From positions 749-64,748 of the forward strand of contig DASRFZ010000189.1 of the NCBI GenBank assembly GCA_035651275.1: DNA of 64,000 bases, in the 5' to 3' direction. A program made the translations under genes and the position numbers. Shown here in pieces: positions 2,615-64,000 of the stretch (position 1 is its first letter; each line of letters opens with the position of its first letter). The notes beneath the pieces were generated by a model, which was given only the letters and a program-made list of their open reading frames with translations, was not told the DNA's origin and ran no database searches. This DNA comes from Mycobacterium sp. GTDB taxonomy: Bacteria > Actinomycetota > Actinomycetes > Mycobacteriales > Mycobacteriaceae.

Positions 2615-5674
<3,060 letters not shown>

Positions 5675-5713
5675 TACCTCGATTCTCCCCGATCGAGGCA
5701 TCCGAATGAAAAT

Positions 5714-5764
5714 CACTTTTGGCGCGGTGAGGCGCGGTGAGCGCTTCTGAGCGCGCCGAATGTG
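5714..5764. repeat. REP-like imperfect intergenic hairpin containing a tandem 10-mer (ggcgcggtga x2)
   Basis: cacttttggcgcg (5714-5726) pairs with cgcgccgaatgtg (5752-5764), 11/13 matches; lies between the ADH stop and the hisD start. Confidence 0.55.
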
Positions 5765-5770
5765 GTCGTG

Positions 5771-49200: not shown

Positions 49201-49399
49201 AGTGCGGCAGCCCGTTGGCGAACGGCGGTCCGTCGTAGAACACGTATTCCTCGGCGCCGTCGCGGCGGGCGATGCTGGCCCGGAACGTGTCGTCGGCCGC
49301 CCAATAGTCGAGGACGTCGAGTTCGAGCTTGGGGAAGTTCGGCGAACCACCGCGCTGGTCGGCACCCAACTCGGTGCGCGGATAGGCGTTGGCAGTCAC
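46262..49399 (-). CDS. ileS: Isoleucyl-tRNA synthetase (type 2)
   Basis: [47 protein letters not shown]; GTG 49399 after a GGAG RBS. Confidence 0.97.
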
Positions 49400-49428
49400 T
49401 CGTGCGTCTCCTGTGCCACTGTCCGGCA

Positions 49429-49592
49429 CGGGGACGACGACGCGCCGGTGCGCGAGCGCCGCGGTACCACCCCGCTTGCACACGCGTGTCGCGTGGCCGC
49501 TCAATACGGCTGTGACGGGCCTACCCGTTCGGTTCTACTTGGCCGCAAGGCTGTTCTTCCGAAGGCTCCCCGGTGATGGCCGGATCGATGCC
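49429..49592 (-). ncRNA. ileS translational T-box riboswitch (AUC specifier)
   Basis: Minus strand GGCATCGATCCGGCC-ATC-ACCGGGGAGCCTTCGGAAGAAC...AGTAGAACCGAACGGG...GGTGGTACCGCGG...GTCGTCCCCG; short stem I typical of actinobacterial ileS T-boxes. Confidence 0.93.
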
Positions 49593-49613
49593 GTTAGCCC
49601 TAGTCTAACCGGC

Positions 49614-50441
49614 ATGGAGCAGCGCACCCTCGAAGCGGTCATCTACGAGCGAGAGCCGCCGATCGCGCGGATCATCCTCAACCGCCCGGAGAAGGCCAAT
49701 ACCAAGGACGCGCAGTTGGTGCAGGAGGTGGACGCGTGCCTGCGCGAGGCAGACCGCGACGGTGAGATCAAGGTCGTCATCCTCAAGGCCAACGGCAAGG
49801 GCTTCTGCGGCGGACATGTGGCGCGCTGGGGGCCCGACGAAAACCCGTACCCGGATTTCGGCGACACGTTCGAGTCGCTGTACAAGGGCACCGCCGACCT
49901 GTTTTTGTGGCCGACGTTGTATCTGTGGGAATTCCCGAAGCCGACGATCTCGCAGATCCACGGCTACTGCATGGGCGGCGGCATCTACCTCGGGTTGCTG
50001 ACGGATTTCTGCGTGGCCTCCGATGACGCGTATTTCCAGATGCCGCTTGCCCAGAGCCTCGGCGAGCCCGGCGGCCACACGATGATCGAGCCCTGGCTGA
50101 TGATGAACTGGCATCGCGTCATGGACTGGCTTCTGTTGGCGCCCACGCTATCCGCCGCCGAAGCGTTGGAGTGGGGTCTTCTGAACAAGGTGGTTCCGCG
50201 CGATCAACTCGAGGACACCGTCGAGGAGATGGCCCGCAAGATCAGCCAGATTCCGTTGACGACGCTGATGGCGGTCAAGAACAACGTCAAGCGGGCGTGG
50301 GAGCTGATGGGTATGCGGGTGCACCTTCAGGTAAGCCACATCCTGACGAACATGGTCGGCGCAGCGTCCGATGTGCAGGCCCGCCGCGCGGAGCTCATCC
50401 AGTCGGGCCTGAAACCCCGCGATTTCGTCGAAGACCCCTAG
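49614..50441 (+). CDS. Crotonase/enoyl-CoA hydratase superfamily protein, non-canonical (EchA13-like)
   Basis: LNRPEKAN, GKGFCGGH, KPTISQIHGYCMGGG; lacks the usual catalytic Glu positions; leaderless ATG after TAGTCT. Confidence 0.85.
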   Translation: MEQRTLEAVIYEREPPIARIILNRPEKANTKDAQLVQEVDACLREADRDGEIKVVILKANGKGFCGGHVARWGPDENPYPDFGDTFESLYKGTADLFLWPTLYLWEFPKPTISQIHGYCMGGGIYLGLLTDFCVASDDAYFQMPLAQSLGEPGGHTMIEPWLMMNWHRVMDWLLLAPTLSAAEALEWGLLNKVVPRDQLEDTVEEMARKISQIPLTTLMAVKNNVKRAWELMGMRVHLQVSHILTNMVGAASDVQARRAELIQSGLKPRDFVEDP

Positions 50442-50443
50442 GC

Positions 50444-50492
50444 GATTTCGGTGCGTTTTCAGGCGCTCAGCGCCGGTTAGCGCACCGAAATC
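50444..50492. repeat. REP-like hairpin / bidirectional terminator between convergent genes
   Basis: gatttcggtgcg / cgcaccgaaatc, perfect 12-bp stem; inner GGCGC-TCA-GCGCC. Confidence 0.72.
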
Positions 50493-52155
50493 ACTCGCCG
50501 CGGGCCGCGTGGCGCGCTGCGACGTAGCCGAAAACCATCGTGTTCGCGATACTGCCGCCCGCCCCGAGGTAATGCCGTCCCATCACCGTCGCCGTGATGT
50601 TGCCCGTCGCGTAGAGGCCGTCGATCACCTTGTCGTTATCGCCGAGGACCTGTCCGTACTCGTTGGTGATCACTCCCCCGCATGTCCCGACGTCGGCCGG
50701 AAAGACGCGTGCGGCGTAGTACGGCGCGCGGTCAAGCGGGCCGAGCGCGGCGTTCGGCCGGTATCCCGGGTCGCCCAGGCAAATGTTGTAGGCCGATTGC
50801 CCGCGGCCGAAGTCGGGATCGAGGCCCTTGACGGCAAACTCGTTGAATCGTTGGACCGTCTGCTCCAAAGCCTCAGCGGGGACGTCGATTTGGCGCGCAA
50901 GATCGGCGACGGTGTCGGCACGCACGATCTCACCCCGTTCGATCACCTCGTCCGGCAGCCGACGCTTCTGTAGCGGGTTCGCCCCAGAGACGTATCGGCG
51001 AACATAACCCTCATCGAAGACCTGCCAGCACGGCACGGCCTTGTTGGCGTACATCGCCTTGCCGACTTCGACGTAGGAGTTCGACTCGTTGCAGAACCGC
51101 CGGCCGGTGCCGTCGACGTAGATGGCCCCCGGTCGCTGCCGCGCCTGGCCGACCGCACGGGCGCGGGGATCGGCCACGAAAACCGATGGGAGCCACCAGG
51201 CTTCGTCAAGCAGGTCGGTCTTCGCGCCCAGCCGCATCGCCGTCTGCAACACTTCACCCGTGTCGCCGGGGTTCGCAAGTGACCACTTTGCCTCGTTGGG
51301 CTGATCGCCGCTGTACCGACGGCGCATTTCCGCGTTGCGACTGAAACCGCCCGCCGCGAGCAACACCCCTTTGCGCGCTTCGATATTCAGCGAGGCATCG
51401 TTTCGAGTGACTCGCGCACCGACGACGCGACCATGCTCGACGATGAGATCGTCCATCGCGGCGCTCGTCCACACCGGAGGTGCGCCAGTGCAGTCGATCA
51501 GCACCTTCAGCATCTGACCGATTAGCGATGCGCCGTTGGTGAGGACCTGGCGCCGCCGGATCCGTGCTGCCCAGGTGCGCAGGAACACCCGCACCGCAAC
51601 GCCGAAAGCTCGTGGCGAGCGGTTGTAGTACTGCACCGAGCGCAGCTCGCTCGTTTTCACCACGAATCCGCGGTTCCAATTCTTGTCCATCGTCTGGACC
51701 CTGCCGCCCCAGTCCCCCAGTGGCGCCGCGTCGTACGGGATGCCCTCGACCGATCGGCCGGCCGCGTTGCCGCCCTTGTGGTTTGGGTAGTAGTCGGCGT
51801 AGCCGGGGCATCGGACCAGCCGAACACCTTTGCGCATAAGGAAGTCGATCATATCGCTGCCCGCGGTCAGGAACATCTCACGCCGCGGGGGCGACGATGC
51901 GGCACCGATGTCACCGACGACGTCGTCGAAGTACGCCAGACCGTCCTCGTGGGAATCGGGCACGCCCTCCGCCCGCATCAACGGGTTGTTCGGCAGCCAC
52001 ACCATGCCGCCCGACATTCCTGTTGCCCCACCGACGAGATCCTCCTTTTCGAGCACGAGGGGTTCGATCCCCGCGTCCAACGCGGCCAGCGCCGCAACCA
52101 TCCCGCCACCACCGCTGCCCACGATCAACAGATCGACGGACTTGTCCCAGTTCAT
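50491..52155 (-). CDS. kstD: 3-ketosteroid Delta1-dehydrogenase family flavoprotein
   Basis: GSGGGG, EK...GGATGMSGG..W.P, ADYY, NESNSY, YLGAG (positions matching the KstD catalytic Tyr/Gly); ATGA overlap with the Rieske gene. Confidence 0.75.
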   Translation of the reverse strand: MNWDKSVDLLIVGSGGGGMVAALAALDAGIEPLVLEKEDLVGGATGMSGGMVWLPNNPLMRAEGVPDSHEDGLAYFDDVVGDIGAASSPPRREMFLTAGSDMIDFLMRKGVRLVRCPGYADYYPNHKGGNAAGRSVEGIPYDAAPLGDWGGRVQTMDKNWNRGFVVKTSELRSVQYYNRSPRAFGVAVRVFLRTWAARIRRRQVLTNGASLIGQMLKVLIDCTGAPPVWTSAAMDDLIVEHGRVVGARVTRNDASLNIEARKGVLLAAGGFSRNAEMRRRYSGDQPNEAKWSLANPGDTGEVLQTAMRLGAKTDLLDEAWWLPSVFVADPRARAVGQARQRPGAIYVDGTGRRFCNESNSYVEVGKAMYANKAVPCWQVFDEGYVRRYVSGANPLQKRRLPDEVIERGEIVRADTVADLARQIDVPAEALEQTVQRFNEFAVKGLDPDFGRGQSAYNICLGDPGYRPNAALGPLDRAPYYAARVFPADVGTCGGVITNEYGQVLGDNDKVIDGLYATGNITATVMGRHYLGAGGSIANTMVFGYVAARHAARGE

Positions 52156-53513
52156 ATCGCCGCCACCCGTCGCGACAGACCGAGCTCGGCGACGGGCACG
52201 TCGATGGTGGTGTTGGTCTTCTGGATCGCACCGACCAGCGTGTCGTACGGCAGGCCTGCGAGAAATCCGTCCACGACCCGCTCGAAGTTCGAGATCAGTC
52301 CTTCGATCTGGTTCGACAACCGCATGTATTCGAATCCCTTGGCGTGCAAGCCTTTCTGCTGCCGGGGCAGGTTGGAGAAATCCTGCGCGGGGATCGTCGG
52401 CCAGCTCGGGTCGTCGGGGGCCACCGGCTCTGGCGGAGTGGGTTTTGACGGCGGCTGGTCCGACGGGAACCTGGTCAGCGACCACACTTCGAACAGCGTC
52501 TGCTCGGGACCCAACGGACGGATGCGGTACGACGCCGCACTGCTGTAGGTCGGCAGGATGAAGTAGTGCGGGAAGCAGAACCCGATCGGATCGGAGACCC
52601 CGCGACGATCAAGGTCATTCAGGTCGGGGAAGTCGCACCCGCGCGCGCGGTGCCACGCGGTAACCGCGTCGTTGACCGCGCTGCGCCACGCCGCCATCGC
52701 CTCGGTCGGGTCGTCGGGCAGCGAAATGTTCTGCAGCCCTTCGGCGATATGGACGTCGTTCGCGTGGGTCATGCCGCCCATCCCGGACCCCAGCGTCCGC
52801 ATGAAGTGAAGGCTGGTCTGCACGACCGGGTGCACCCGGGACGACTCCGGGCTGTGCGCCGACGGCAGCAGTTGCGGGTGGGTCTGCGGCACGTGGTAGC
52901 CCTCCATGAACGCCGCCGTCGCCAGCTTCCAATTCACTGGCAGCAGACACGATTTCCACCATTCGGTGTAGAGCTTGTCCACTTTCCACTCGTCGTGCCG
53001 TGACGCGAACGGGTCGATGCAGTCGCGCAGCGCGGGCGCGTCGGCGTCGAGGTTGATCCAGGCGCAGCCGCCCCACAGCTCGCATCGCACCGGCGCGAGC
53101 CCGAGATCGTCGGCGCACAAGTTGTTTTCGTCAAACACCTCGGGCCGCAGCACGAACGTGTTGGCGCCGTCGAGACCCCAGCACCATCCGTGGAACGGGC
53201 AGACGAAGCTGCGCCGGCTGCCGTGTCCCTCGACGAGTTTCATGCCCCGATGACGGCACGAGTTGTAGTACGCGCGCACGGTGGTGGCGTCGAGTCGCAC
53301 GACGATGACCGACTGGTCCAGAATCTCGTACTCCGCAAAGTCGCCGGGTTTCGGAATCTCCTCCAGCCGGCACGCCATCTGCCAGACGCGGGGCCAGAAC
53401 AGCTCGGTCTCCAGGTCGTAGAACTCGCGATCGAAGTAGCGCTGCTTGGGAATTCGGTCAGGAGTCTGCACGGCCCAGGGCACCGGTAGCGGTGTCCAAT
53501 TCACGTCAGTCAT
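52152..53513 (-). CDS. Rieske non-heme iron oxygenase alpha subunit
   Basis: NSCRHRG...CPFHGW Rieske ligands; EGYHVPQTH and QD mononuclear iron ligands. Confidence 0.9.
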   Translation of the reverse strand: MTDVNWTPLPVPWAVQTPDRIPKQRYFDREFYDLETELFWPRVWQMACRLEEIPKPGDFAEYEILDQSVIVVRLDATTVRAYYNSCRHRGMKLVEGHGSRRSFVCPFHGWCWGLDGANTFVLRPEVFDENNLCADDLGLAPVRCELWGGCAWINLDADAPALRDCIDPFASRHDEWKVDKLYTEWWKSCLLPVNWKLATAAFMEGYHVPQTHPQLLPSAHSPESSRVHPVVQTSLHFMRTLGSGMGGMTHANDVHIAEGLQNISLPDDPTEAMAAWRSAVNDAVTAWHRARGCDFPDLNDLDRRGVSDPIGFCFPHYFILPTYSSAASYRIRPLGPEQTLFEVWSLTRFPSDQPPSKPTPPEPVAPDDPSWPTIPAQDFSNLPRQQKGLHAKGFEYMRLSNQIEGLISNFERVVDGFLAGLPYDTLVGAIQKTNTTIDVPVAELGLSRRVAAI

Positions 53514-53530: not shown

Positions 53531-55045
53531 TCACAGGATTCGCGACGTCCGCTGATTCCAGTATCGATCGCGAATCCGCCTTTTGTAGAGCTTGCCGTTG
53601 GGATCGCGGGGCAGTTCGGCGTCGAAGTCAACCGTCCGCGGGCATTTGTACGTCGCGATGTGCGCGCGGCAGTAGTCGATGAGCTCGTCGGCCAGCTCCG
53701 GGCCGGGCTCGATGCCGTCGACTGGTTGCACGACCGCCTTCACCTCTTCGCCGAATTCATCGTTGGGAACCCCGAACACCGCGGCGTCCACCAGCTTGGG
53801 GTGCATGACGAGAAGGTTCTCCACCTCTTGCGGGTAGATGTTGACCCCGCCGGAGACGATCATGAACGTCGAGCGGTCGGTCAGGTACAGATAGCCGTCG
53901 TGGTCCACATAGCCGATGTCGCCGAGTGTCCGCCAGCCTTTTTCGTTGGCGACGGACGCGGTCTTCTCGGGATCCTTGAAGTACTCGAAGTCGGGGCCGC
54001 CTTCGAAGAACAACTCACCGGACTGGCCGACCGGAAGCTCCTCGCCGCCCTCCCCGACGACATGCACCGTGGTGAGAGGCTTGCCTACCGACCCGGGGTG
54101 GGCGAGCCACTCTTCGGGCCCGATCGTCGAACCTGCGAATCCCTCAGTGCCGCCGTAATACTCGTATAGAATCGGCCCGAACCAGTCCATCATCCGCTGT
54201 TTGACGGCGACGGGGCACGGTGCGGCAGCGTGGATGACGCATTCGAGGCTGGATACGTCATAACGCTCGCGGACAGCCTCGGGAAGCTTGAGCATCCGGA
54301 CGAACATCGTCGGGACGAACTGCGCGTGGGTGACGCGATGCTGCTCGATCAGTGCCAGTACCGCTCCGGCGTCGAACTTGCGCATCGTGATCGCGGTGGC
54401 TCCGACGCGATGCACGGCCATCGTGTAGTTCACGCCGGCCGCGTGGTACAGCGGCGCCGGCGAGAGGTAAACACTGGAGTCGGTCATCTTGTAGTGGTGC
54501 TGCAAGGCCATTTCCAGCACGTACTGTGCCCACGAGCCGTTGCCGTCGATCGGAAGCGGCCGGCGCACCGCCTTCGGCCGGCCCGTGGTGCCCGACGAGT
54601 ACAGCATCTCGGAGCCGTCGGACACGGGCGGCGGGTCGCCGGCCGCGGCCAGGGCGTCGGCGTACGGGCGCCAACCCGACACCTCGCCGCCGACCGCGAC
54701 GTGGACGTCGACGCCCCGGCTCGTCGCCATGAGGTGAGATGCCAAGTCGACCATCGAGGCGTCGACGAACACCGCCCTCGCCTCGGAGTCGTCGACGATG
54801 TACGCGACCTCCTCTGGCGTGAAGTGGGTATTCACCGCGCTGTAGTAAAGACCGGAAAGCTGGCAGCCCCAGGTGATTTCGAAGAACTCTTGGCAGTTCG
54901 GCAGCACCAGCGCCACCCCGTCGCCGCGCCGAAGGCCCGCGTCATGCAACACAGCCGCCACCCGTTGGCTTCGGGCGTACAGATCACCGTAGGTAATGGT
55001 CTCGCCGCCCGCGACGACGAGCGCCGGAGAGTCCGGCGTCCTCAT
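53531..55045 (-). CDS. Acyl-CoA synthetase (FadD4-like AMP-binding)
   Basis: YSSGTTGRPK, PLYHAAG, YYGGTE, TLGDIG, SGGVNIYP, PNGKLYK. Confidence 0.9.
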   Translation of the reverse strand: MRTPDSPALVVAGGETITYGDLYARSQRVAAVLHDAGLRRGDGVALVLPNCQEFFEITWGCQLSGLYYSAVNTHFTPEEVAYIVDDSEARAVFVDASMVDLASHLMATSRGVDVHVAVGGEVSGWRPYADALAAAGDPPPVSDGSEMLYSSGTTGRPKAVRRPLPIDGNGSWAQYVLEMALQHHYKMTDSSVYLSPAPLYHAAGVNYTMAVHRVGATAITMRKFDAGAVLALIEQHRVTHAQFVPTMFVRMLKLPEAVRERYDVSSLECVIHAAAPCPVAVKQRMMDWFGPILYEYYGGTEGFAGSTIGPEEWLAHPGSVGKPLTTVHVVGEGGEELPVGQSGELFFEGGPDFEYFKDPEKTASVANEKGWRTLGDIGYVDHDGYLYLTDRSTFMIVSGGVNIYPQEVENLLVMHPKLVDAAVFGVPNDEFGEEVKAVVQPVDGIEPGPELADELIDYCRAHIATYKCPRTVDFDAELPRDPNGKLYKRRIRDRYWNQRTSRIL

Positions 55046-55096: not shown

Positions 55097-55960
55097 CTAC
55101 GAACCGTCGGTGGACGCCGCAGCCGCACTCTGCCGTTGCGCCATCTCCGATGGCAGGATCTTGTCCTTGAACACCCGCTGGATCAGCGCCTGCACGTCGG
55201 AGCTGAGTGACGCGAGCGCGACCAAATCGTTGGAGCTCTGCCAGTGCACCCGCATGCCCATCAGCTCCCACGCGCGCTTCAGGTTCGCCTTCGTCGCCAA
55301 CAGCGTCGTCAGTGGCGCCTGCGCGATGTGGCGGGCGATCGCCTCGACTCGCGTGTCGAGGTCTTCACGTTTGACCACCTCGTTGACCAGACCGACCTCC
55401 AGAGCCTTCTTCGCGTCGATCACCTCGGCGAGATATAGGTAGTAGGCCGCGCGCCGCCAGTTCATGAAAACCCATGGCTCGATCGAACATTCACCCGACG
55501 GCATCCCGAAGCCCTGCAGCGGCGGGTACTGGAAATACGCGTCCTCCGATGCGATCACGATGTCGGTGGTCAACCCGTAGTGCGTGCCGCCGCCGACGCA
55601 GTAGCCATGCACCTGCGCGATCGTCGGCTTGGAGAACTCCCACAGGTTCAGGATCGGTTTGACGAACAAGTCGGTCTGCGGTTTCCACGGCGTGCCAGTG
55701 TGTTTGAAGCCCTCGACGAACTCCGGATAGTCGACCGCGTTGTTGCCGATCGCGTGTCCGGAGCAGAACCCCTTGCCGTTGGCCTTGATCACCAGCACCT
55801 TGATGTCGTAGTCGCGGTCGGCGTCGATCAATGCGGCATCGATCTCCTCGACCTGCTTTTGGTCCTGAGCGTTCGCCTTCTCCGGCCAGTTCAGCGTGAT
55901 CCGCGCGATCGGCCCTTCTTTTTCGTAGATGATCCGCTCACGCGTCTCGTTGCAGTCCAC
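55097..55960 (-). CDS. Crotonase/enoyl-CoA hydratase superfamily protein, paralog of 49614-50441
   Basis: LNWPEKAN, GKGFCSGH, KPTIAQVHGYCVGGG, IEPW, KRAWELMGMRVH; GAGGAGG RBS. Confidence 0.85.
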   Translation of the reverse strand: MDCNETRERIIYEKEGPIARITLNWPEKANAQDQKQVEEIDAALIDADRDYDIKVLVIKANGKGFCSGHAIGNNAVDYPEFVEGFKHTGTPWKPQTDLFVKPILNLWEFSKPTIAQVHGYCVGGGTHYGLTTDIVIASEDAYFQYPPLQGFGMPSGECSIEPWVFMNWRRAAYYLYLAEVIDAKKALEVGLVNEVVKREDLDTRVEAIARHIAQAPLTTLLATKANLKRAWELMGMRVHWQSSNDLVALASLSSDVQALIQRVFKDKILPSEMAQRQSAAAASTDGS

Positions 55961-55979: not shown

Positions 55980-56216
55980 TTATGACGTGATGACGCCGAT
56001 TTCGGCGCCGATGTCGTAGGTCGTGCCGACTTCGCCGGTCCATTGGACCGTGCCCGATGCACCCGCTTCGATCTCCTGTTCCACCTTCTCTGTTGCGATC
56101 ACGTAGATCGGCGTGCCCTCGTCGACGTGCTGGCCACCGTCGACGAGGATGTCGACGAGCTCGGCTTCGGACACCGCGACCGAGACACGCGGAATGCGAA
56201 TGATGAAGTCAGCCAC
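55980..56216 (-). CDS. Stand-alone lipoyl carrier domain protein (78 aa)
   Basis: IRIPRVSVAVSEAEL...IATEKVEQEIEAGASG; TEK lipoylation motif, not the biotinyl AMK. Confidence 0.85.
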   Translation of the reverse strand: MADFIIRIPRVSVAVSEAELVDILVDGGQHVDEGTPIYVIATEKVEQEIEAGASGTVQWTGEVGTTYDIGAEIGVITS

Positions 56217-57207
56217 GCGATCCCGTTCTGTCAAGGGTACGTTGGACGGCCTCGATGATCCGCGTGGCCGACGGGTAGATCTGCGCCTCAAGCAACGGAG
56301 CAGCCGGCGCGGGAACGAACCGCGCCCCGACGCGTTCGACCGGCGCGGCGAGCTCGCCGAACAACTCGGACTGCAGGATTGCCGCGACCTCTGCGCCCGG
56401 GCCGGCGAATTCCACCGCGTCGTGAACCACTACTGCCCGTCGCGTTCGGCCGACCGACTCCACCAATGTGTCGACGTCGAGCGGCACGAGCGTACGCAGG
56501 TCGACGACTTCGGCGCTCACTCCCTGCTCGGCCAGCGTGGCCGCGGCTGCCAACGCGTCGTGCACGCTGCGCCCGTAGCCGACGAGCGTCACGTCGGTGC
56601 CGGCCCGCTTGACGTCCGCCTGGCCCAGCGGGATCGAGAAGCCGGGATCGGTTGGCACCAAACCTTTTTGACCCTGCAAGCGGATGGTCTCGACGAACAG
56701 GCACGGGTCCTCGTCGAAGATCGCCGACGTCAGCAGGCCCTTACCATCGCGTGGGGTAGACGGGACGACGACCTTCATCCCGGGGATGTGCATGAACCAC
56801 GCTTCGAGTGTCTGCGAGTGGGTTGCCCCGGTGGCGAGGCCGCCGTACACCTGAGTGCGCACCGTGATCGGTGCCGTCGTGCGGCCCGCGGTCATGAACC
56901 GCAACTTGGCCGCGTTATTGATGATCTGGTCGGCGGCGATCCCGATGAAGTCCATGATCATGATCTCGGCCACCGGCAGCAGGCCGTCGATCGCGGCGCC
57001 GATCGCCGCCCCGACGATCGCGGCCTCGGAGATGGGCGTGTCGAGCACCCGGTCGGCGCCGTACTTCGTCGATAGTCCCGCGGTCGGACCCGACGCGCCG
57101 GGATCGGCGATGTCCTCCCCGAGCAGGAACACCCGGTCGTCGGCAGCCAGCGCGGCGTCCAGCGCGAAGTTGAGCGCCTCGCGCATCGTCATTTCCCTCT
57201 CGTCCAC
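56209..57207 (-). CDS. TPP-dependent 2-oxoacid/acetoin dehydrogenase E1 beta subunit
   Basis: LLGEDI, DTPISEAAIVG, EIMIMDF, THSQ, VVDLRTLVPLD. Confidence 0.92.
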   Translation of the reverse strand: MDEREMTMREALNFALDAALAADDRVFLLGEDIADPGASGPTAGLSTKYGADRVLDTPISEAAIVGAAIGAAIDGLLPVAEIMIMDFIGIAADQIINNAAKLRFMTAGRTTAPITVRTQVYGGLATGATHSQTLEAWFMHIPGMKVVVPSTPRDGKGLLTSAIFDEDPCLFVETIRLQGQKGLVPTDPGFSIPLGQADVKRAGTDVTLVGYGRSVHDALAAAATLAEQGVSAEVVDLRTLVPLDVDTLVESVGRTRRAVVVHDAVEFAGPGAEVAAILQSELFGELAAPVERVGARFVPAPAAPLLEAQIYPSATRIIEAVQRTLDRTGSRG

Positions 57208-57216
57208 GTCCGCGCC

Positions 57217-58200
57217 TCAGACCGGGTACCGAATCGCGGTGGCGTACACATCTTTTGACAACTCGTCGACGGACGGCGGGTCGGCAGCCATCACCGTCTT
57301 CAACGCGGCTTCGACGCGGCTCAGCGCGTCGTTCTCGACGCGGGAAAGCTCGCCCTCGTCGGCCAAACCCGCCTCCAACAAATGGCTGCGGAACCGCGGC
57401 ACCGGGTCGGCCGCCACCGCAGCTGCCAGCTGGTCGGCCGGAATGTAGGGCGTGCGGTCGCCGAAGTAGTGGCCGCGGAAGCGGAACGTCACGCACTCGA
57501 TAAGCGTCGGGCCGTCCCCACCGCGCGCGCGGTCCAGAGCCCCGCCGAGCGCCGACATCACGGCCAGCGGGTCGTTGCCGTCGACACGCACCCCCGGCAT
57601 GCCGTATCCGGCAGCGCGCTCGGCGACGTGTTCGAGCTTCATCGTGTGCCGCGTCGGCGTCATCTCCGCGTACTGATTGTTCTGGCATACCAACACGATT
57701 GGCAGGTTCCACAGCGCGCCCATGTTCGCGGCCTCGTGGAACGAGCCGGTGTTGGTGGCGCCGTCGCCGAAGCTGACCACCGTGACGCGGTCGAGCCCCT
57801 TGCGTTGGGCCGCCATCGCCAAACCGACGCCCACCGGCGGGCCCGCGCCGACGATCCCGGTGGACAGCATCACGCCCTTCGCGGGGTTGGCGATGTGCAT
57901 CGTGCCGCCCTTGCCGCGGCCGGCACCGACGGTGCGGCCCATCATTTCGCCGTAGATCTCCTCGAGCGGCACCCCTTTGCCTATGAGGTCGTGCAAACCG
58001 CGGTAGGTCGTCACCAATTGGTCGTCGTCGCGAAGCGACACGCCCATCGCGGCTGCGATGGCTTCCTGGCCGCGCGACGGCCAGTACACGCACATGAACT
58101 CGCCGGTGCCGATGCCCTTGCTCAACCTGTCGTCGGCCGCCTTCATCAACACCATCAGCGCGTAGATGCGCTTCTGGACGTCGGCGGGCACGTCAGTCAT
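57217..58200 (-). CDS. TPP-dependent 2-oxoacid/acetoin dehydrogenase E1 alpha subunit
   Basis: GQEA, TYRG, GKGGTMH, FGDGATNTGSFHE..N...QNNQY TPP motif, RFRGH. Confidence 0.92.
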   Translation of the reverse strand: MTDVPADVQKRIYALMVLMKAADDRLSKGIGTGEFMCVYWPSRGQEAIAAAMGVSLRDDDQLVTTYRGLHDLIGKGVPLEEIYGEMMGRTVGAGRGKGGTMHIANPAKGVMLSTGIVGAGPPVGVGLAMAAQRKGLDRVTVVSFGDGATNTGSFHEAANMGALWNLPIVLVCQNNQYAEMTPTRHTMKLEHVAERAAGYGMPGVRVDGNDPLAVMSALGGALDRARGGDGPTLIECVTFRFRGHYFGDRTPYIPADQLAAAVAADPVPRFRSHLLEAGLADEGELSRVENDALSRVEAALKTVMAADPPSVDELSKDVYATAIRYPV

Positions 58201-58520
58201 GGCTGGTACGAACCGATCTCGCGGTACACCTTCGGGATCGGCGGCGGCGAGTCCATGCTCAAATACTGCAGCGACGACATCTTCCCGCTTCTGCCCAACT
58301 CGCCCATCCGCCCTACCACCGCGTCGAGGTCGTCGCAGTCGAGTTCGTAGATCGCGACAAACGGACCCGTTCCGTCAGTTGGGGCGAAGCGGCGCGCCGA
58401 CACGACACCCTCGACCGAGCAGATCTCGGCGAGATGCGTGTCGTTGTACCACGCGTGGTACTCGGCTTCCTTGTCCGACGACACCGGCATCGTCTCGAGA
58501 TAGATGATCCCTCTGGGCAT
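58197..58520 (-). CDS. EthD/DUF4286-like dimeric alpha-beta barrel protein
   Basis: EAEYHAWYNDTHL, VSARRF, AIYEL. Confidence 0.75.
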   Translation of the reverse strand: MPRGIIYLETMPVSSDKEAEYHAWYNDTHLAEICSVEGVVSARRFAPTDGTGPFVAIYELDCDDLDAVVGRMGELGRSGKMSSLQYLSMDSPPPIPKVYREIGSYQP

Positions 58521-58535
58521 CTCAGCCGACCTCTC

Positions 58536-59402
58536 TCATCCACCCGACCACGGTTTGACTTTGAGAAAGCCACCGCCGTCCACGCGCAGCTGCTGGCCGG
58601 TGATGTAGCGAGCCGCGTCGCTGGCGAGGAACAACACCGCCTCGCTGATGTCCTCGGGTTCGACATACGGGATCGGCATCGCCTGCACCACAGGGAACAC
58701 CGGCTCGGCGTCCTCGCGAGTCGGGTTCTTCAAGTCGGGCCGAAACGCCCTGTACATCGGTGCGCTGTGCAACATGTCGGTGTTGACGTTCGTCGGATGG
58801 ACCGCGTTCATCCGGATGGAGAACGGCGCAAGCGCTAGAGCGAAGTCGTTGACATAGTGCGCCCCAGCCAGTTTCGCGAACGCGTACCCCGCGCCGCCGG
58901 GGCCGCCGTCGATCCCGGTGGTGTTCATCGACGACATGAACGCCGCGTTAGATCCCGTCACGATGATCGACGCGCCGGCGTGTAGGTGCTTGAGACTCGC
59001 GTGCACGAGATTGAGCACGCCGACGAGGTCGACGTCAACGGCGTCGGCGAAGGCCTGGGGCGGCAGACCGGCAGTGAGCGGGCAGATGCCCGCATTGGCG
59101 ACGACGATGTCGAGTTGGCCGAATTCGGCCACCCCCCGGTCGATCGCCTGGGACAGCGCCGCACGATCGCGGACGTCGGCGATCTCGGTGAACGCGCGCT
59201 GGCCCTCTTTCTCGACAAGCCGCGCCGTTTCGTCGAGATCCTCCGGCCGCGCCAGCGGGTACTCGTTGGTTTCGATATCCGCGCACAGGTCCACGGCAAT
59301 GATGTCCGCGCCCTCGGCGGCGAGCAGCCGAGCATGCGAACGGCCTTGGCCGCGCGCGGCGCCGCTGATCAATGCGACCTTGCCTGTCACCCTGCCCATC
59401 AA
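58536..59402 (-). CDS. Mycofactocin-coupled-type SDR oxidoreductase
   Basis: GKVALISGAARGQGRSHA, IAVDLC plus insertion loop YPLARPEDL, NAG, Y.FAK, HPTNVNT. Confidence 0.82.
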   Translation of the reverse strand: MMGRVTGKVALISGAARGQGRSHARLLAAEGADIIAVDLCADIETNEYPLARPEDLDETARLVEKEGQRAFTEIADVRDRAALSQAIDRGVAEFGQLDIVVANAGICPLTAGLPPQAFADAVDVDLVGVLNLVHASLKHLHAGASIIVTGSNAAFMSSMNTTGIDGGPGGAGYAFAKLAGAHYVNDFALALAPFSIRMNAVHPTNVNTDMLHSAPMYRAFRPDLKNPTREDAEPVFPVVQAMPIPYVEPEDISEAVLFLASDAARYITGQQLRVDGGGFLKVKPWSGG

Positions 59403-59423: not shown

Positions 59424-60563
59424 TCAGACTGTCAATACCAGCGAACCACATTGCGGGCCAAAGCCATTCGCGACCACTGCGACCTCGGCATCGGGAACCT
59501 GACGCGGCCCACACTCGCCGCGCAGCTGTGCCACGCCTTCGGCCAGAAAGCCCAGCCCGTGCAGCCGGCCCTCGGCAAGCTGTCCGCCGCTCGTGTTCAG
59601 CGGCAGCACACCACCCGGTCCGATGGTCTTGCCGCCGTCGACCCAGTCGCCGAACTCCCCAATGCCGCACATGCCCATGGCTTCGACCCAGGACATCGCG
59701 ATGTGCGTGAATCCGTCGTAGAGCTCGGCGACGTCGACGTCGGCCGCGGTCACCGAGGACCGCTTCCACATCGTGTCGGCACAGGGCCGCGTGCCGCCGA
59801 ACAAGAAGTCGTCGGCGTAGGTGAAATCCGGTTTCCAGCCGGTGCCCATCGCGATCGCATCGATGAAGACGGGCCGCTTGGGGGTGTCGGCGGCGCGCTC
59901 CGGGCTGGTGATGACGACAGCGCAGGCACCCGTCACCGGGTAGTCGCAGTCGAGCAGCCGAAGAGGCTCGGAGACATAGCGCGAACCCAGATAGTCGTCG
60001 ATCGTCAGCGGTTCCCGCATGACCGCGCGCTCGTTGAGCGACGACCACCGTCGCCCGTTCAGCGAGATCTGCCCGTAGTCTTCCTCTTTCGTGCCCAGCG
60101 TGGCCATGCGGCGCTGCTTTTTCATCCCCATCACCGGGATGATCCCGCCTGCGATGCCGTACGGGAACTCGAATTGCCACGGGCCCGCCGCGCGCGGCAG
60201 CGCCCGCCCGCTCATCTGGCCCCACTCCCGGGTCACCGAACGCACGACAAGCGCGACGTCGCACGTTCCGGACAGCACCGCCATGTGGGCGCCCAGCGCC
60301 GCCGCCAGACCAGACGGCCCACGCGGCGTGTAGTCGCCGTAGACCACCAAGTTCTCGATGCCGACCAGACGTGCGATGTCCATCGCCTGCTCGTCGCCGG
60401 CGTACTCGAACACCGCGTCGATGTCGCTCACGGCTAATCCTGCGTCAGCGATGGCGATGCGAGACGCCTCTACGGCCAGCGGCCGACCGTCTATGCCCTT
60501 ATCGCGGAGAATTTTCGAGTAGCCGACACCCACTACGGCTGACCGCCTGGCTGACCCGTTCAT
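59424..60563 (-). CDS. SCP2/Ltp2-type thiolase-fold protein
   Basis: VVGVG, CDYPVTGA, AELYDGFT, NTSGGQLAEG..HG; no Cys at the usual thiolase nucleophile position. Confidence 0.82.
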   Translation of the reverse strand: MNGSARRSAVVGVGYSKILRDKGIDGRPLAVEASRIAIADAGLAVSDIDAVFEYAGDEQAMDIARLVGIENLVVYGDYTPRGPSGLAAALGAHMAVLSGTCDVALVVRSVTREWGQMSGRALPRAAGPWQFEFPYGIAGGIIPVMGMKKQRRMATLGTKEEDYGQISLNGRRWSSLNERAVMREPLTIDDYLGSRYVSEPLRLLDCDYPVTGACAVVITSPERAADTPKRPVFIDAIAMGTGWKPDFTYADDFLFGGTRPCADTMWKRSSVTAADVDVAELYDGFTHIAMSWVEAMGMCGIGEFGDWVDGGKTIGPGGVLPLNTSGGQLAEGRLHGLGFLAEGVAQLRGECGPRQVPDAEVAVVANGFGPQCGSLVLTV

Positions 60564-60610
60564 CCATCTCTTCCATGAAACTGCGCGGTGGCAGTGGAGG
60601 TCACGGTATG

Positions 60611-60650
60611 CCGCACAGTATCTAAAATACCTAAAATAGAAAAGACTGCG
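60611..60650. promoter_or_regulatory. AT-rich divergent control region with the direct repeat CTAAAATA x2
   Basis: ctaaaata at 60622-60629 and 60631-60638, flanked by imperfect ccgcacagt/actgcgg. Confidence 0.45.
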
Positions 60651-60688
60651 GACCCGGGGCGGCGGTGGGGTTCGAGTATTGTCCGCAT

Positions 60689-61846
60689 GTGGACTTCTCG
60701 TACCCGCCACAGGTAGAAGAGTTCCGCACTGCATTGCGCGCGTGGCTAGCCGCCAACCTCACAGACGACGTGGTCGCCGCGGGCCGGCGGCGCGGCCGCG
60801 ACGATGCGGCGTTCGAAACACTGCGCGCCTGGGATGCGGCGATGGCTGACGCGGGGTGGGCGGCGGTGTCCTGGCCGCGGGAGTACGGTGGCCGCGGCGC
60901 GACCCTGCTCGAACAGGTCGCCTACGCGGAAGAGACCACCCGCGCGCGATCTCCGTTGCCGCTCAACGTGATCGGGATGACCAACATCGCGCCGGCGATC
61001 ATGCATTACGGGACCGACAAACAGAAGAGCGACCTGCTCCCCCGGATGATGCGCGCCGACGACATCTGGTGCCAGGGGATGTCAGAGCCCGAGGCCGGGT
61101 CCGATCTCGCGTCGCTGCGAACCCGTGCGGTGCGCGACGGCACCGACTTCGTCGTCAACGGACAGAAGATCTGGACGTCGCTGGGTCATCGCGCCGACTG
61201 GTGCCAGCTGTATGTGCGGACAGACCCAAATGCCCCTAAGCACAAGGGCATTTCGTGCCTCATCGTCGATATGACGCTGCCCGGTATCGAAGTATGGCCC
61301 ATCCGCACGCTCACTGGCGACGCCGATTTCGCGGAAGTGTTCTTCACCGACGTGCGGGTGCCGGCCGACGCGCTGTTGGGACCGCTCGACGGCGGATGGG
61401 GCGTAGCGACCACCACCCTGAGTCATGAACGTGCCGGGGCAGCAAGGCTTTACGCAGAGATGCAGCTGCGACTGCAGGATCTTGCCGCCGATCTAGCCGA
61501 CACTGAGACCGACGGCCACCCGGCCGTCGAGGACGCCGTGACGTTACGACGGCTGGGCGAACTAGCGGTGCGCATCAAGTATCTCGAAGTGTTGTGCCTG
61601 CGATCGATCTCGCTGGCGCAGAACGGCGGTGATCCGTTCGGCTCGGCCAGCGTTGCGAAGACGGTGTGGGGCGAGGTGGGACAGGGACTGGCCGCGCTTG
61701 CCTTCGACACACTCGGCGACCGGGAAGCCGACGGCCGGTGGACGCGCGACCGATTGTCTACGCGGTCGCTGACGATCGCCGGCGGCACCACTCAGATCAA
61801 CAAGAACATCACCGCTGCGCGTGTCCTCGGGTTGCCCCGCCAATGA
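60689..61846 (+). CDS. Acyl-CoA dehydrogenase, alpha (catalytic) subunit of the heteromeric type
   Basis: WPREYGGRG, WCQGMSEPEAGSDL, NGQKIWTS, TLSHER, TIAGGT; leaderless GTG after TATTGT. Confidence 0.9.
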   Translation: MDFSYPPQVEEFRTALRAWLAANLTDDVVAAGRRRGRDDAAFETLRAWDAAMADAGWAAVSWPREYGGRGATLLEQVAYAEETTRARSPLPLNVIGMTNIAPAIMHYGTDKQKSDLLPRMMRADDIWCQGMSEPEAGSDLASLRTRAVRDGTDFVVNGQKIWTSLGHRADWCQLYVRTDPNAPKHKGISCLIVDMTLPGIEVWPIRTLTGDADFAEVFFTDVRVPADALLGPLDGGWGVATTTLSHERAGAARLYAEMQLRLQDLAADLADTETDGHPAVEDAVTLRRLGELAVRIKYLEVLCLRSISLAQNGGDPFGSASVAKTVWGEVGQGLAALAFDTLGDREADGRWTRDRLSTRSLTIAGGTTQINKNITAARVLGLPRQ

Positions 61847-62931
61847 ATCTCGAGCTGACCGACGAGCAGGTCGCGCTGCGCGACACCGTGAGGCGATTCC
61901 TTGCCGAAAAGGCAAGCGTGACAGCACATGTACGGCCGATGCTCGACGATCCGACCGGCACCACTGCCGACGTCTGGCGCGGTCTTGCCGAACTCGGTGC
62001 GACGGGAGTGCTCGTCCCGCCGGACTACGGCGGTGCCGGCATGACGATGGTCGAGGCCGGGATCGTCGCCGAGGAGCTCGGCGCGGCCCTGCACCCGGGA
62101 CCGTGGTTGTCCTGCGCGGTCGCAGCAGTACGCGCGGTGACGCGGACCGGCGCGGCGGAAAAGGCCGGCGCTCTGCTGAGCGGCATTGCCGACGGGTCGA
62201 CGATCGCGACGGTCGGCCCGTTGCGCGGCCCCCGGCCGGGCGCAGTCGAACGCAGTGACGGAGTCGTGCTGCGCGGAACGCTCTCGGCGATGCCCGACGC
62301 CGCAGCGGCGAACGTGATGATGGTCCTCGCCGAAGACGGGGACGGGGCCGCGCTCTCCACCGTCGAGACGGCAGTCTGCCATCTGGGCGACCAGTCGGGC
62401 GGTGTCGACCCCACCCGCAAGCGGTTCGCGGTCACGCTCGACGACTCACCGGCGCAGCGCCTCGCATCGGTGTCAGCCGAGCAATGCCAAGCGCTGGTCG
62501 ACGACGTGCTGGTCGCCCATGCGGCCGACGCTCTCGGGGCCGCAGAGGCAGTGCTGACGCTGGCCGTGGAGTACGCCAAGACGCGGAGACAATTCGGTCA
62601 CCCGATCGGCAGTTTTCAAGCCGTGCAACACCTTTGCGTGGACATGTACGAAGCGATCGAGCTCGCCCGCAGCGGCGTCGTCCATGCCCTGTGGGCCGCA
62701 GATGCCGCGGATCCAGCCGAGCGACACCTCGCTGCAATTCGGGCGAAAGCGTTCGCGGGGCAACTGACTGCCGTCGGCGACACCGCGATCCAAGTGTTCG
62801 GCGGCGTCGGGTACACCTGGGAGCACGACGCTCATCTGTACCTCAAGCGGTTGCTGGGCTGGAGCGCCTATCTCGGCGGGCCCGACCGATACCTCCAGGA
62901 AGTCGGTCGCGAACTCGTGTCCGGGCTCTAA
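61843..62931 (+). CDS. Acyl-CoA dehydrogenase, beta subunit of the heteromeric type
   Basis: LTDEQ, RRQFGHPIGSFQAVQH, FGGVGYTWEH; lacks the SEP/GSD FAD loop; ATGA overlap with the alpha subunit. Confidence 0.88.
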   Translation: MNLELTDEQVALRDTVRRFLAEKASVTAHVRPMLDDPTGTTADVWRGLAELGATGVLVPPDYGGAGMTMVEAGIVAEELGAALHPGPWLSCAVAAVRAVTRTGAAEKAGALLSGIADGSTIATVGPLRGPRPGAVERSDGVVLRGTLSAMPDAAAANVMMVLAEDGDGAALSTVETAVCHLGDQSGGVDPTRKRFAVTLDDSPAQRLASVSAEQCQALVDDVLVAHAADALGAAEAVLTLAVEYAKTRRQFGHPIGSFQAVQHLCVDMYEAIELARSGVVHALWAADAADPAERHLAAIRAKAFAGQLTAVGDTAIQVFGGVGYTWEHDAHLYLKRLLGWSAYLGGPDRYLQEVGRELVSGL

Positions 62932-63554
62932 CTGACCATCACCATTTCGGCGGCATCACGCAGCATCGGCGCCGCTTCCGACGTCAGTTCGATGAGCGCG
63001 AGAGGGAATTGCTCGGCGAGCTCATCGACGGTGCTTCGCTCCAGCCGGCGGGTGTCGTACCACCAATCCATCTGCAGCACCCCACCCGATCGGTACACCC
63101 GCAGCTCGAGCGCGTGGCCATCACTCGGCAGCATTTGCCGACGCATCGGCTCGTGCGCGCCGAGCAGATAGGAAATCGCGACGTCGGAGGCTGCCGACGT
63201 CAGGCGGCCGACTCTCCGCCGCGCGCCAGTCAGCGCGCGGTGGGCAGCGCGCACCGCTTTGGTGGCGCTCACTTCCCCTACGGTCGTGCAGGCCAGGGTC
63301 ACCGTCGCTTCGCCCTCGCCGAGAAGGTCCACCGACATGTCTCCAGTGCCGATGGTTCGCGCGATGGTCCGGGCGACCGCCGCGAGGACGAGCTCCTCGA
63401 CGGTCAGCCTCAAGTATTGGCGAGCCTCGTCGAGCTCCGTGGTCAACATGCTGGTCAGCGGAGCTGACAGGATTGCGAGATCGTCGGGGCGCGGGGGCCC
63501 GTCAACGTCGTAGTCGAGCATTTGCAGAGTTGCTCTCCCCAAGTTTGTGGACAT
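62928..63554 (-). CDS. Stand-alone protein resembling the C-terminal lobe of an NRPS/PKS condensation domain
   Basis: LAAVARTIAR, VSVDL-like strand, ELRVYRSGGVLQMDWWYDTRRLERSTVDELAEQF; no HHxxxDG; start uncertain (63554 or 63521). Confidence 0.6.
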   Translation of the reverse strand: MSTNLGRATLQMLDYDVDGPPRPDDLAILSAPLTSMLTTELDEARQYLRLTVEELVLAAVARTIARTIGTGDMSVDLLGEGEATVTLACTTVGEVSATKAVRAAHRALTGARRRVGRLTSAASDVAISYLLGAHEPMRRQMLPSDGHALELRVYRSGGVLQMDWWYDTRRLERSTVDELAEQFPLALIELTSEAAPMLRDAAEMVMVS

Positions 63555-63688
63555 GAGGCAACGGTACACCGATGTCCCATTTTTGGGAGATATGTGCCAA
63601 AACCGTGACGGCTGTGTCAATTTCGGTTGATCTCTCTAGTTTGCGGGAGCCACTGCCCAAACGCGGGAGTTTGCTCTATGGTGTAGAA

Positions 63689-64000
63689 GTGCCACGGACA
63701 GACGAGAACGGCCGGCAACTGAAGGCTTTGCTGGACTACCTGCTCGACGGGGATATCGAAGCAAAGGACATCTACGACGCGCTCGGGGTCTCCAGCAGCA
63801 CCTATTACCGGCGGATCAAGGAAGACAACTACCCTGACGCCGAGGAACTGCGGAGGGTGGCCGACAGGTTCAACCTCAGCTATCCCGATCTTCAGGTGCG
63901 ATTTGGATTGATGAGTCACCAAGAGGTGCAGAATTATCTGGACTCCGGCCCGTTTGCCACAACGAAGATACGGGAGCGCACCACGACCCGTCGGCCGAAA
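63689..64000 (+). CDS. HTH transcriptional regulator, phage immunity repressor-like (runs off the window)
   Basis: Manual translation MPRTDENGRQLKALLDYLLDGDIEAKDIYDALGVSSSTYYRRIKEDNYPDAEELRRVADRFNLSYPDLQVRFGL...; GTG 6 nt after a TATGGT -10; not in the ORF track. Confidence 0.7.
   Translation, partial: MPRTDENGRQLKALLDYLLDGDIEAKDIYDALGVSSSTYYRRIKEDNYPDAEELRRVADRFNLSYPDLQVRFGLMSHQEVQNYLDSGPFATTKIRERTTTRRPK

Follow-up and report, generated by a model that had tools for sequence, protein, structure and literature searches.

How does a thiamine diphosphate (ThDP)-dependent dehydrogenase hand on its acyl group when the gene for its acyltransferase, E2, is absent from the operon? In the textbook view, a multidomain E2 forms the core of the 2-oxoacid and acetoin dehydrogenases. 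The question is raised by a stretch of 64,000 nucleotides from a soil Mycobacterium sp. assembly (GCA_035651275.1, contig DASRFZ010000189.1), here called the window, which encodes the two E1 subunits (E1alpha and E1beta) followed by Lip, a protein made of a lipoyl domain only. A preliminary description of this DNA had taken the enzyme for an E2-less one, possibly a desmolase-like enzyme off-loaded by a non-E2 partner. From the comparison with orthologous and related loci, we consider it probable that the locus encodes a ThDP-dependent E1 (alpha2beta2) with a free lipoyl carrier, in a system of the acetoin- or 2-oxoacid-dehydrogenase type whose E2 is split into separate proteins. By its gene content, the locus belongs to a widespread and undescribed split-E2 family, non-scaffolded and embedded in a conserved catabolic operon.

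For the E1 subunits, the coordinates, the domains and the coupling to the free lipoyl protein agreed with the preliminary description (Table 1). E1alpha harbors the intact GDG...NN ThDP/Mg motif, within FGDGATNTGSFHEAANMGALWNLPIVLVCQNN, as had been read. The histidine of its FRFRGH segment aligned with that of human E1alpha (YRYHGH) and is kept across the E1 clade; this histidine is needed for the reductive acylation of lipoamide. The E1alpha loop VYWPSRGQE, previously pointed out as unusual, was likewise confirmed, and the clade alignment resulted in the signature Y[YW][SP][PS]RGQE; in a classical Rhodococcus E1alpha this position is occupied by WFHSCIGHE. E1alpha missed the PDH (pyruvate dehydrogenase) equivalog cutoffs of NCBIfam (TIGR03182, 255 versus 393.85; TIGR03181, 243.8 versus 411.35), E1beta scored 313.4 against the model NF006667, under the cutoff of 321, and transketolase models matched weakly (NF004559, 58 bits). 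The identity of E1alpha was 81-85% to 80 Mycobacterium orthologues and 45-48% to the clade members in Proteobacteria and Streptomyces, and that of E1beta to clade members was 50-57%. The E1alpha orthologues are named acetoin:DCPIP (2,6-dichlorophenolindophenol) oxidoreductase alpha by the Joint Genome Institute (JGI). A search for contigs encoding the window's own E1alpha returned only one, of 1.7 kb.

The GTG start of Lip lies inside GTGGCTGA and overlaps the E1beta stop, and the open reading frame (ORF) stops after 78 aa with no catalytic domain fused. By every sequence test, Lip is a working gene. The median dN/dS over 79 mycobacterial sequences was 0.13, i.e., purifying selection, and A-T-E-K44, which includes the TEK motif noticed before, was invariant in these sequences; K44 was also invariant in an alignment of 43 free Lips from Actinobacteria and Proteobacteria. 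In the AlphaFold2 model (pLDDT 90.6), K44 is located at the hairpin between strands 36-41 and 46-50. The dN/dS value, the invariant lysine, and the confident lipoyl-domain model together argue that Lip is functional. Its best NCBIfam match was the N-terminus of the acetoin dehydrogenase E2. The top Foldseek matches were E2 lipoyl domains, with template-modeling scores of 0.90-0.92, and biotinyl domains (biotin carboxyl carrier protein) matched too, as Foldseek does not separate the two types. The lysine motif is ATEKV in the mycobacterial Lip and ESDKS, ESEKS or ATDKT in close relatives, and the biotin-type MKM was present in none. A lipoyl-type rather than biotinyl-type Lip is favored because its genomic partners are E1beta and, in relatives, a free E2 catalytic domain (E2cat).

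Free lipoyl proteins of this kind are common. The library of representatives scanned with the Lip profile yielded mostly multi-lipoyl E2s, along with free representatives of about 76 aa. The free lipoyl family comprises at least 1,255 clusters at 90% identity in Mycobacterium and at least 2,000 in Proteobacteria, and the free proteins of about 76 aa share 76-83% identity among the Alpha-, Beta-, and Gammaproteobacteria. The Lip reading frame of every close relative ends right after the domain; fused full-length E2s were found only among remote matches, with identities of at most 41%. Some free lipoyl genes of 76 aa have no adjoining E1, as in two metagenome contigs (L116, 10001-10231; L117, 10001-10231). 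The neighbors of such genes are TetR, cytochrome P450 and AMP-ligase genes in one case and an AhpC/TSA peroxiredoxin gene directly downstream in another.

The synteny set comprised 82 Mycobacterium loci. The E1alpha/E1beta/Lip trio was syntenic in 77-80 of them and is therefore not a chance arrangement. For the search of E2 and E3, the tblastn queries were a full-length E2, the catalytic domains of three free E2 proteins, and the LpdA of RHA1, and the targets were the 64-kb window and 80 orthologous Mycobacterium loci of about 21 kb. None of these sequences contained a match to an E2 catalytic domain (PF00198); the sole match was the lipoyl domain, and the LpdA query, representing E3, had no match. 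An E3 was also not seen in the related non-mycobacterial loci. Thus, the earlier statement that the window holds neither E2 nor E3 was upheld.

The module also exists outside Mycobacterium, in Proteobacteria and Streptomyces, and in every case it includes a free lipoyl protein. A plasmid of Streptomyces sp. NBC_00564 carries a TetR gene and the order Rieske-ferredoxin-FAD protein-E1alpha-E1beta-Lip (77 aa)-patatin-like protein, with an AMP-ligase adjoining. A plasmid of Azospirillum sp. B510 carries a TetR gene and Rieske-E1alpha-E1beta-Lip (76 aa)-AMP-ligase-FAD protein-OYE-SDRs-NTF2, where OYE stands for old yellow enzyme and SDR for short-chain dehydrogenase/reductase. In Paraburkholderia, Diaphorobacter, and Ferribacterium, E1alpha, E1beta, and Lip are followed by a free E2cat of about 250 aa (PF00198) with the DHRVINGAD motif intact, and uptake-type genes (DUF1302/DUF1329/BNR/MMPL) adjoin these modules. 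The full operon, present in a Steroidobacteraceae metagenome-assembled genome (MAG; L093) and in several rhizosphere metagenome contigs, reads Rieske-KstD-like-E1alpha-E1beta-Lip-E2cat-FadD-ECH-ECH-ACAD-ACAD-SnoaL-ADH (ECH, enoyl-CoA hydratase-like crotonase; ACAD, acyl-CoA dehydrogenase; ADH, alcohol dehydrogenase). The metagenome locus L104 has the same order from Rieske to the ACAD pair, which closes the operon. KstD and Rieske were both present in 8 of the 17 non-mycobacterial loci with enough upstream DNA. The free E2cat of these relatives begins directly at the catalytic domain, and no peripheral-subunit-binding domain was found in the split-E2 family.

To count the E2cat genes, we considered the 39 non-mycobacterial loci that have a free Lip and enough downstream DNA, with E2cat within 700 nt. 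An intact free E2cat directly followed Lip in 22 of them. In Azospirillum, the plasmid that bears the E2cat-less module also bears a second Lip, paired with an E2cat, at a distance of 83 kb. The term E2-less thus stood for the mycobacterial locus and failed for the system as a whole. The preliminary description had named a cognate and co-regulated E2 catalytic-domain gene as one finding that would overturn it, and the orthologous operons and the Azospirillum plasmid pair come close to supplying one. Because related operons encode the E2 core as a separate small protein, the system does not appear to be E2-free by design.

Compared with the proteobacterial operon (L104, L105, L101, and L093), the mycobacterial proteins were 46-48% (E1alpha), 50-54% (E1beta), about 40% (KstD-like), 32-34% (Rieske), and about 33% (FadD) identical, and Lip, ECH and the ACAD pair also correspond one-to-one. 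The mycobacterial Rieske protein is 32-34% identical to that of the Streptomyces module as well. The two operons differ in that the mycobacterial gene order is another, a mycofactocin-coupled SDR replaces the Zn-ADH, and one ECH is duplicated; E2cat is the sole component without a mycobacterial counterpart. On this comparison, the E2cat gene is lost from the operon in the mycobacterial branch. Of the traits of the split-E2 family, the mycobacterial locus has the free Lip of about 76-78 aa after E1beta and the co-operonic Rieske, KstD-family, acyl-CoA ligase and crotonase genes; it does not have the adjoining PF00198 protein of about 250 aa.

Other arrangements were seen beside these. The second Azospirillum pair (L167, NC_013856.1, 80236-81277) has no E1 genes and is located between IS3, IS256, ISAs1, and IS1380 transposases. 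The Sphingobium Tom* plasmids carry a related E1alpha-E1beta cluster. In the Sphingobium sp. TomTYG73 plasmid AP027340.1 (L086), the related E1alpha and E1beta genes are followed by a PaaG-like crotonase, without a lipoyl gene. A free E2 catalytic-domain ORF, annotated as hypothetical, is located at 5297-5992 of this locus on the opposite strand, with a Rieske homologue and two KstD-like FAD proteins nearby.

A split E2 is argued for by the domain identities, the intact catalytic motifs and the overlapping or closely spaced operon genes, together with the synteny in 80 Mycobacterium loci. It is further argued for by the recurrence of this gene set, each time including a free Lip, in Streptomyces, Azospirillum, the Steroidobacteraceae MAG and the rhizosphere contigs, by the free E2cat (DHR..G) directly after Lip in more than half of the loci counted, by the pairing of an E2cat-less module with an unlinked Lip-E2cat in Azospirillum, and by a Lip that is functional in every test. 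A precedent is provided by the actinobacterial OdhA/KGD, where the E2 catalytic domain uses a lipoyl-lysine supplied in trans (PMC10415282).

Some observations weigh against a split E2 in Mycobacterium. No E2cat turned up in the window, nor in the 10 kb on either side in 80 Mycobacterium genomes, and 17 of the 39 non-mycobacterial loci are also without an adjoining E2cat, which leaves some probability to an E2-independent route. In addition, the mycobacterial Lip has diverged in its N-terminal loop, with VSVAVSEAEL..ATEK versus the canonical GFSMNEG(xL)..ESDK, a divergence that a different partner could have caused. As the E2cat search covered the window and loci of about 21 kb, an E2 acting in trans in Mycobacterium is an assumption.

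The gene content and its conservation are the direct observations; the four steps of the proposed mechanism are derived from homology. In the first step, E1 would cleave a C-C bond beside a carbonyl, either by decarboxylation of a 2-oxoacid or by splitting an acyloin that the desaturase and the oxygenase have produced. In the second step, the lipoyl-K44 of the free Lip would be reductively acylated by E1, and in the third, an E2 catalytic domain acting in trans would pass the acyl group to CoA. In Mycobacterium, this domain may come from an unlinked E2cat gene or from a housekeeping core, for example DlaT, BkdC or the Kgd acyltransferase domain. Finally, the dihydrolipoyl group would be reoxidized by the housekeeping Lpd. 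E1 and Lip would thus perform one step of a catabolic operon that also encodes an alcohol dehydrogenase, a KstD-family desaturase, a Rieske oxygenase, an acyl-CoA ligase, two atypical crotonases and an ACAD pair.

The operon is encoded on the minus strand in the order Ltp-SDR-p107-E1alpha-E1beta-Lip-ECH_b-acyl-CoA ligase-Rieske-KstD-family, and its genes overlap or are separated by gaps of at most 51 nt. Table 1 summarizes the genes and their presence in the Mycobacterium loci.

Table 1. Genes of the E1/Lip operon and adjacent catabolic genes in the window, with the number of Mycobacterium loci (of 82) in which each was found.
Gene	Position	Strand	Length (aa)	Domains and remarks	Loci (of 82)
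ECH_a, crotonase-fold	49389..50441	+		PF00378; convergent; true start probably internal	62
KstD-family FAD dehydrogenase	50491..52155	-	554	PF00890; ATGA overlap with Rieske stop	63 (KstD-like)
Rieske oxygenase alpha subunit	52152..53513	-	453	PF00355 + PF00848	67
Acyl-CoA ligase, FadD4-like	53531..55045	-	504	PF00501/PF13193; NF038341, 621 bits, under cutoff	66 (FadD)
ECH_b, crotonase-fold	55097..55960	-	287	PF00378; 19 nt after Lip	73
Lip, lipoyl-domain-only protein	55980..56216	-	78	PF00364, 37.2 bits versus cutoff 22.1	77
E1beta subunit	56209..57207	-	332	Transket_pyr PF02779, E=1.1e-34; Transketolase_C PF02780, E=8.3e-38	80
E1alpha, ThDP-binding subunit	57217..58200	-	327	PF00676, E=1.3e-75	
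p107, small DUF4286-like protein	58197..58520	-	107	PF14114, weak, E=0.0017; 4-nt overlap with E1alpha start	
Mycofactocin-coupled SDR	58536..59402	-	288	TIGR03971, 335 versus cutoff 300	73 (directly upstream)
Ltp, thiolase-like lipid-transfer protein	59424..60734	-		PF22691, NF005892; first operon gene in window	5
Acyl-CoA dehydrogenase pair	60665..62931	+		ACAD domains; divergent	about 18

The KstD-family protein scored above the NCBIfam cutoff for 3-ketosteroid-delta-1-dehydrogenase (NF009478, 805 versus 789), and its best PDB match was the 3-oxosteroid 1-dehydrogenase 7p18 (5e-97). The Rieske protein has no close solved relative, the best being 2ckf (4e-28). In some Mycobacterium genomes the Rieske/KstD/ECH_a block is located on the opposite side, with the linkage retained. 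The acyl-CoA ligase gene is kept in the module across phyla. Since the SDR exceeds the mycofactocin-coupled cutoff, alcohol oxidation in the pathway is predicted to depend on mycofactocin. A functional link of the trio to the KstD-like gene and the SDR had been proposed and was borne out, as both co-occur with the trio across phyla. The small protein p107 was found in 44 Mycobacterium loci and seems to be a member of the module because its homologues directly follow the free lipoyl gene in three proteobacterial-type loci (L121, 10243-10470; L100, 2270-2476; L155, 182-388). Ltp is accessory, given its low occurrence.

The related loci are rich in SDR, P450, OYE, NTF2/SnoaL, and 3beta-hydroxysteroid dehydrogenase (3beta-HSD)-like genes. 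Together with the DUF1302/DUF1329/MMPL genes, this content suggests a hydrophobic, cyclic substrate that may resemble a steroid or a terpenoid. The presence of a conserved acyl-CoA ligase, of crotonases and of the ACAD pair points to intermediates in the form of CoA thioesters.

Among the alternatives, a truly E2-independent enzyme was weighed first. In this case, the acyl-Lip would be off-loaded by a non-E2 protein of the cluster (ECH_b or Ltp), or would be hydrolyzed and the acid re-activated by the acyl-CoA ligase. The absence of E2cat near any of the 80 Mycobacterium loci fits such an enzyme, and so does ECH_b, which closely follows Lip, is kept in most of the loci (Table 1), and does not have the glutamates of a hydratase. 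The canonical Glu-Glu pair of enoyl-CoA hydratases is absent from both crotonases (GGGTH/YPP in ECH_b and GGGIY/MPL in ECH_a), as it is from the ECHs of the proteobacterial sister operon, and thus ECH_a and ECH_b are probably not simple hydratases. The genes after Lip in other E2cat-less loci are also varied: patatin-like in Streptomyces, AMP-ligase in Azospirillum, P450 or thiolase in metagenome loci, and p107 followed by ECH in L100 and L155. However, the two mycobacterial crotonases arose by a recent duplication and share about 52% identity, and their counterpart and a second ECH coexist with E2cat in the sister operons. The crotonase therefore appears to be an ordinary member of the pathway and not an E2cat replacement, and the earlier proposal of off-loading by the adjacent crotonase was not supported. 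With Ltp present in only five loci and the E2cat-less Azospirillum module coexisting with an unlinked E2cat, we regard an E2-independent enzyme as unlikely.

The second alternative is a desmolase-like reaction, in which E1 cleaves a 17-hydroxy-20-keto steroid to a 17-ketosteroid and an acetyl- or glycolyl-lipoyl group. The conserved partner is a bona fide KstD-family enzyme, the operon SDR and Rieske protein together could create an alpha-hydroxyketone, and genes of the SDR, P450, OYE, NTF2/SnoaL, and 3beta-HSD-like types abound in related loci. The JGI name also groups this E1 with acetoin-cleaving (acyloin) E1s, in agreement with the best NCBIfam match of Lip. However, the Rieske protein does not resemble KshA, and a simple C21 side-chain cleavage needs none of the CoA-thioester enzymes of the operon (acyl-CoA ligase, crotonases, ACAD pair). 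The Clostridium scindens DesAB also depends on ThDP and breaks a C-C bond adjoining the ketone of a steroid; it is a split transketolase, with an N-terminal ThDP half and a C-terminal half, and has no lipoyl acceptor. Here, E1alpha belongs to the E1_dh family (PF00676) and has a dedicated Lip, and its homology to the transketolase-type DesAB is restricted to the level of the ThDP superfamily. The literature searches provided no link either. A desmolase-like E1 is therefore quite improbable in our estimate, and an E2-independent desmolase is not favored by the comparative evidence. Of the steroid-17,20-desmolase and the ring-cleavage 2-oxoacid readings of the preliminary description, none of the results supports or excludes either.

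The third alternative, to which we assign a slim chance, is an ordinary paralogue of PDH or of a branched-chain 2-oxoacid (BCKDH) or acetoin dehydrogenase that would use E2 and E3 from the housekeeping complexes and have its present neighbors by coincidence. The strong homology to the E1 of PDH and BCKDH and the JGI name are consistent with it. On the other side, the scores fall well under the PDH equivalog cutoffs, the active-site loop is clade-specific, the dedicated free Lip is under purifying selection, and the Rieske, KstD, FadD, and ECH neighborhood is kept from Actinobacteria to Alpha-, Beta-, and Gammaproteobacteria. The last alternative, a lipoate-free E1alpha-E1beta acting as a ThDP lyase or carboligase (alphaKADH2-like) beside a vestigial or biotin-carrying Lip, is very hard to credit, although E2-less enzymes of the E1alpha-E1beta type exist in natural-product clusters (PMC12247030) and the Lip fold matches biotinyl domains too, because Lip shows a low dN/dS and an invariant lysine, the relatives have canonical lipoyl motifs (ESDKS, ATDKT) and no biotin MKM, Lip is always beside E1beta and often beside E2cat, and the operon has no carboxylase or sugar-biosynthesis genes.

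With the split E2 as the preferred reading, the locus was compared with known systems. The acetoin dehydrogenase (AcoA/AcoB/AcoC with or without AcoL) also has a heterotetrameric ThDP-dependent E1alpha-E1beta, a lipoyl acceptor and an E3 that is often outside the operon, and the SDR of the present operon recalls the butanediol dehydrogenase of aco clusters. In contrast, the lipoyl domain here is a separate protein of 78 aa with the acyltransferase domain neither fused nor adjoining, the E1alpha loop is clade-specific, and the context is one of KstD-like, Rieske, and CoA-thioester genes, not of acetoin or butanediol genes. The canonical PDH and BCKDH, with heterotetrameric E1, share the E1 fold, the ThDP motif, the catalytic histidine and the lipoyl fold with the lysine at the hairpin tip. 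However, the present proteins score below the cutoffs and have no multidomain E2 core (lipoyl, peripheral-subunit-binding and catalytic domains), hence no obvious scaffold.

The OdhA/KGD 'two-in-one' 2-oxoglutarate dehydrogenase belongs to the same lineage and likewise has the E2 catalytic and lipoyl domains on different polypeptides (PMC10415282). OdhA, however, combines E1 and the catalytic domain in one polypeptide and uses the lipoyl domains of E2p, whereas here Lip is free and the catalytic domain is free in the relatives of this locus and absent from the mycobacterial operon. The nearest precedent for an E2-less E1alpha-E1beta is provided by the alphaKADH2 sugar-branching carboligases (PMC12247030), which differ in having no lipoyl protein and another context.

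Full-text literature on lipoyl domains that stand alone beside an E1, on steroid clusters with an acetoin dehydrogenase, and on DUF1302/DUF1329 with E1 was searched, and no description of the module was found. The bile-salt side-chain cluster of Sphingobium Chol11 was rejected, as its Rieske enzyme is not accompanied by any enzyme of the ThDP or lipoyl type. The actinobacterial oestrogen aed cluster was rejected as well, since it works with a 2-hydroxyacid dehydrogenase, a decarboxylase and a CoA ligase in place of an E1. A tomatine/tomatidine paper on Sphingobium, a saponin preprint on Arthrobacter, and a comparative preprint on C. testosteroni TA441 had no link to the module.

The remaining window (1-49504) consists of housekeeping genes, and the catabolic cluster abuts ileS at its edge. 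The housekeeping genes are impA-like, hisB, hisD, nadABC, a secreted lipase, bioB, bioF, bioA, an AT3-SGNH acyltransferase, glgX/treY/treZ-like genes, ilvA, zwf, a fadD, dnaE, a Ser/Thr kinase, an rluA-like gene, lspA, a dinB-like Y-family polymerase, a methyltransferase, and ileS. This stretch presumably resembles Rv1536-Rv1604 of M. tuberculosis, with the catabolic cluster inserted beside ileS. The module looks like a mobile island, since that of M. simulans has different neighbors. The G+C content of the window is about 66%, and its nearest relatives are all Mycobacterium. At the window end (62928-63922, minus strand) there are two ORFs, of 230 aa and 101 aa, without a Pfam family; relatives of the former (48-49% identity) were found in only 2 of the 82 loci. 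A promoter and terminator scan resulted in nothing exceeding the shuffled background.

A bolder reading, which we put forward as a doubtful one, is that Lip serves as a diffusible lipoyl carrier for a ThDP/lipoyl C-C cleavage, which would either open a ring or split an acyl side chain off an alpha-hydroxyketone, during the degradation of a polycyclic steroid- or terpenoid-like compound. The KstD-family and Rieske enzymes would prepare the substrate, and the acyl group would be resolved without any E2cat in Mycobacterium. If true, this would represent a new reaction type in steroid or terpenoid catabolism and a new non-complexed architecture for the 2-oxoacid dehydrogenase family.

In the locus described here, the lipoyl domain forms a small protein of its own, as does the E2 catalytic domain in the relatives. 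The operon is conserved and apparently unstudied, and solving it would define a new pathway of soil and rhizosphere bacteria for what is, by the gene content, presumably a hydrophobic and cyclic compound, and would explain the working of a lipoyl carrier that has no scaffold. The mycobacterial version, without an E2cat gene, represents a natural experiment on the resolution of acyl-lipoyl groups in trans.

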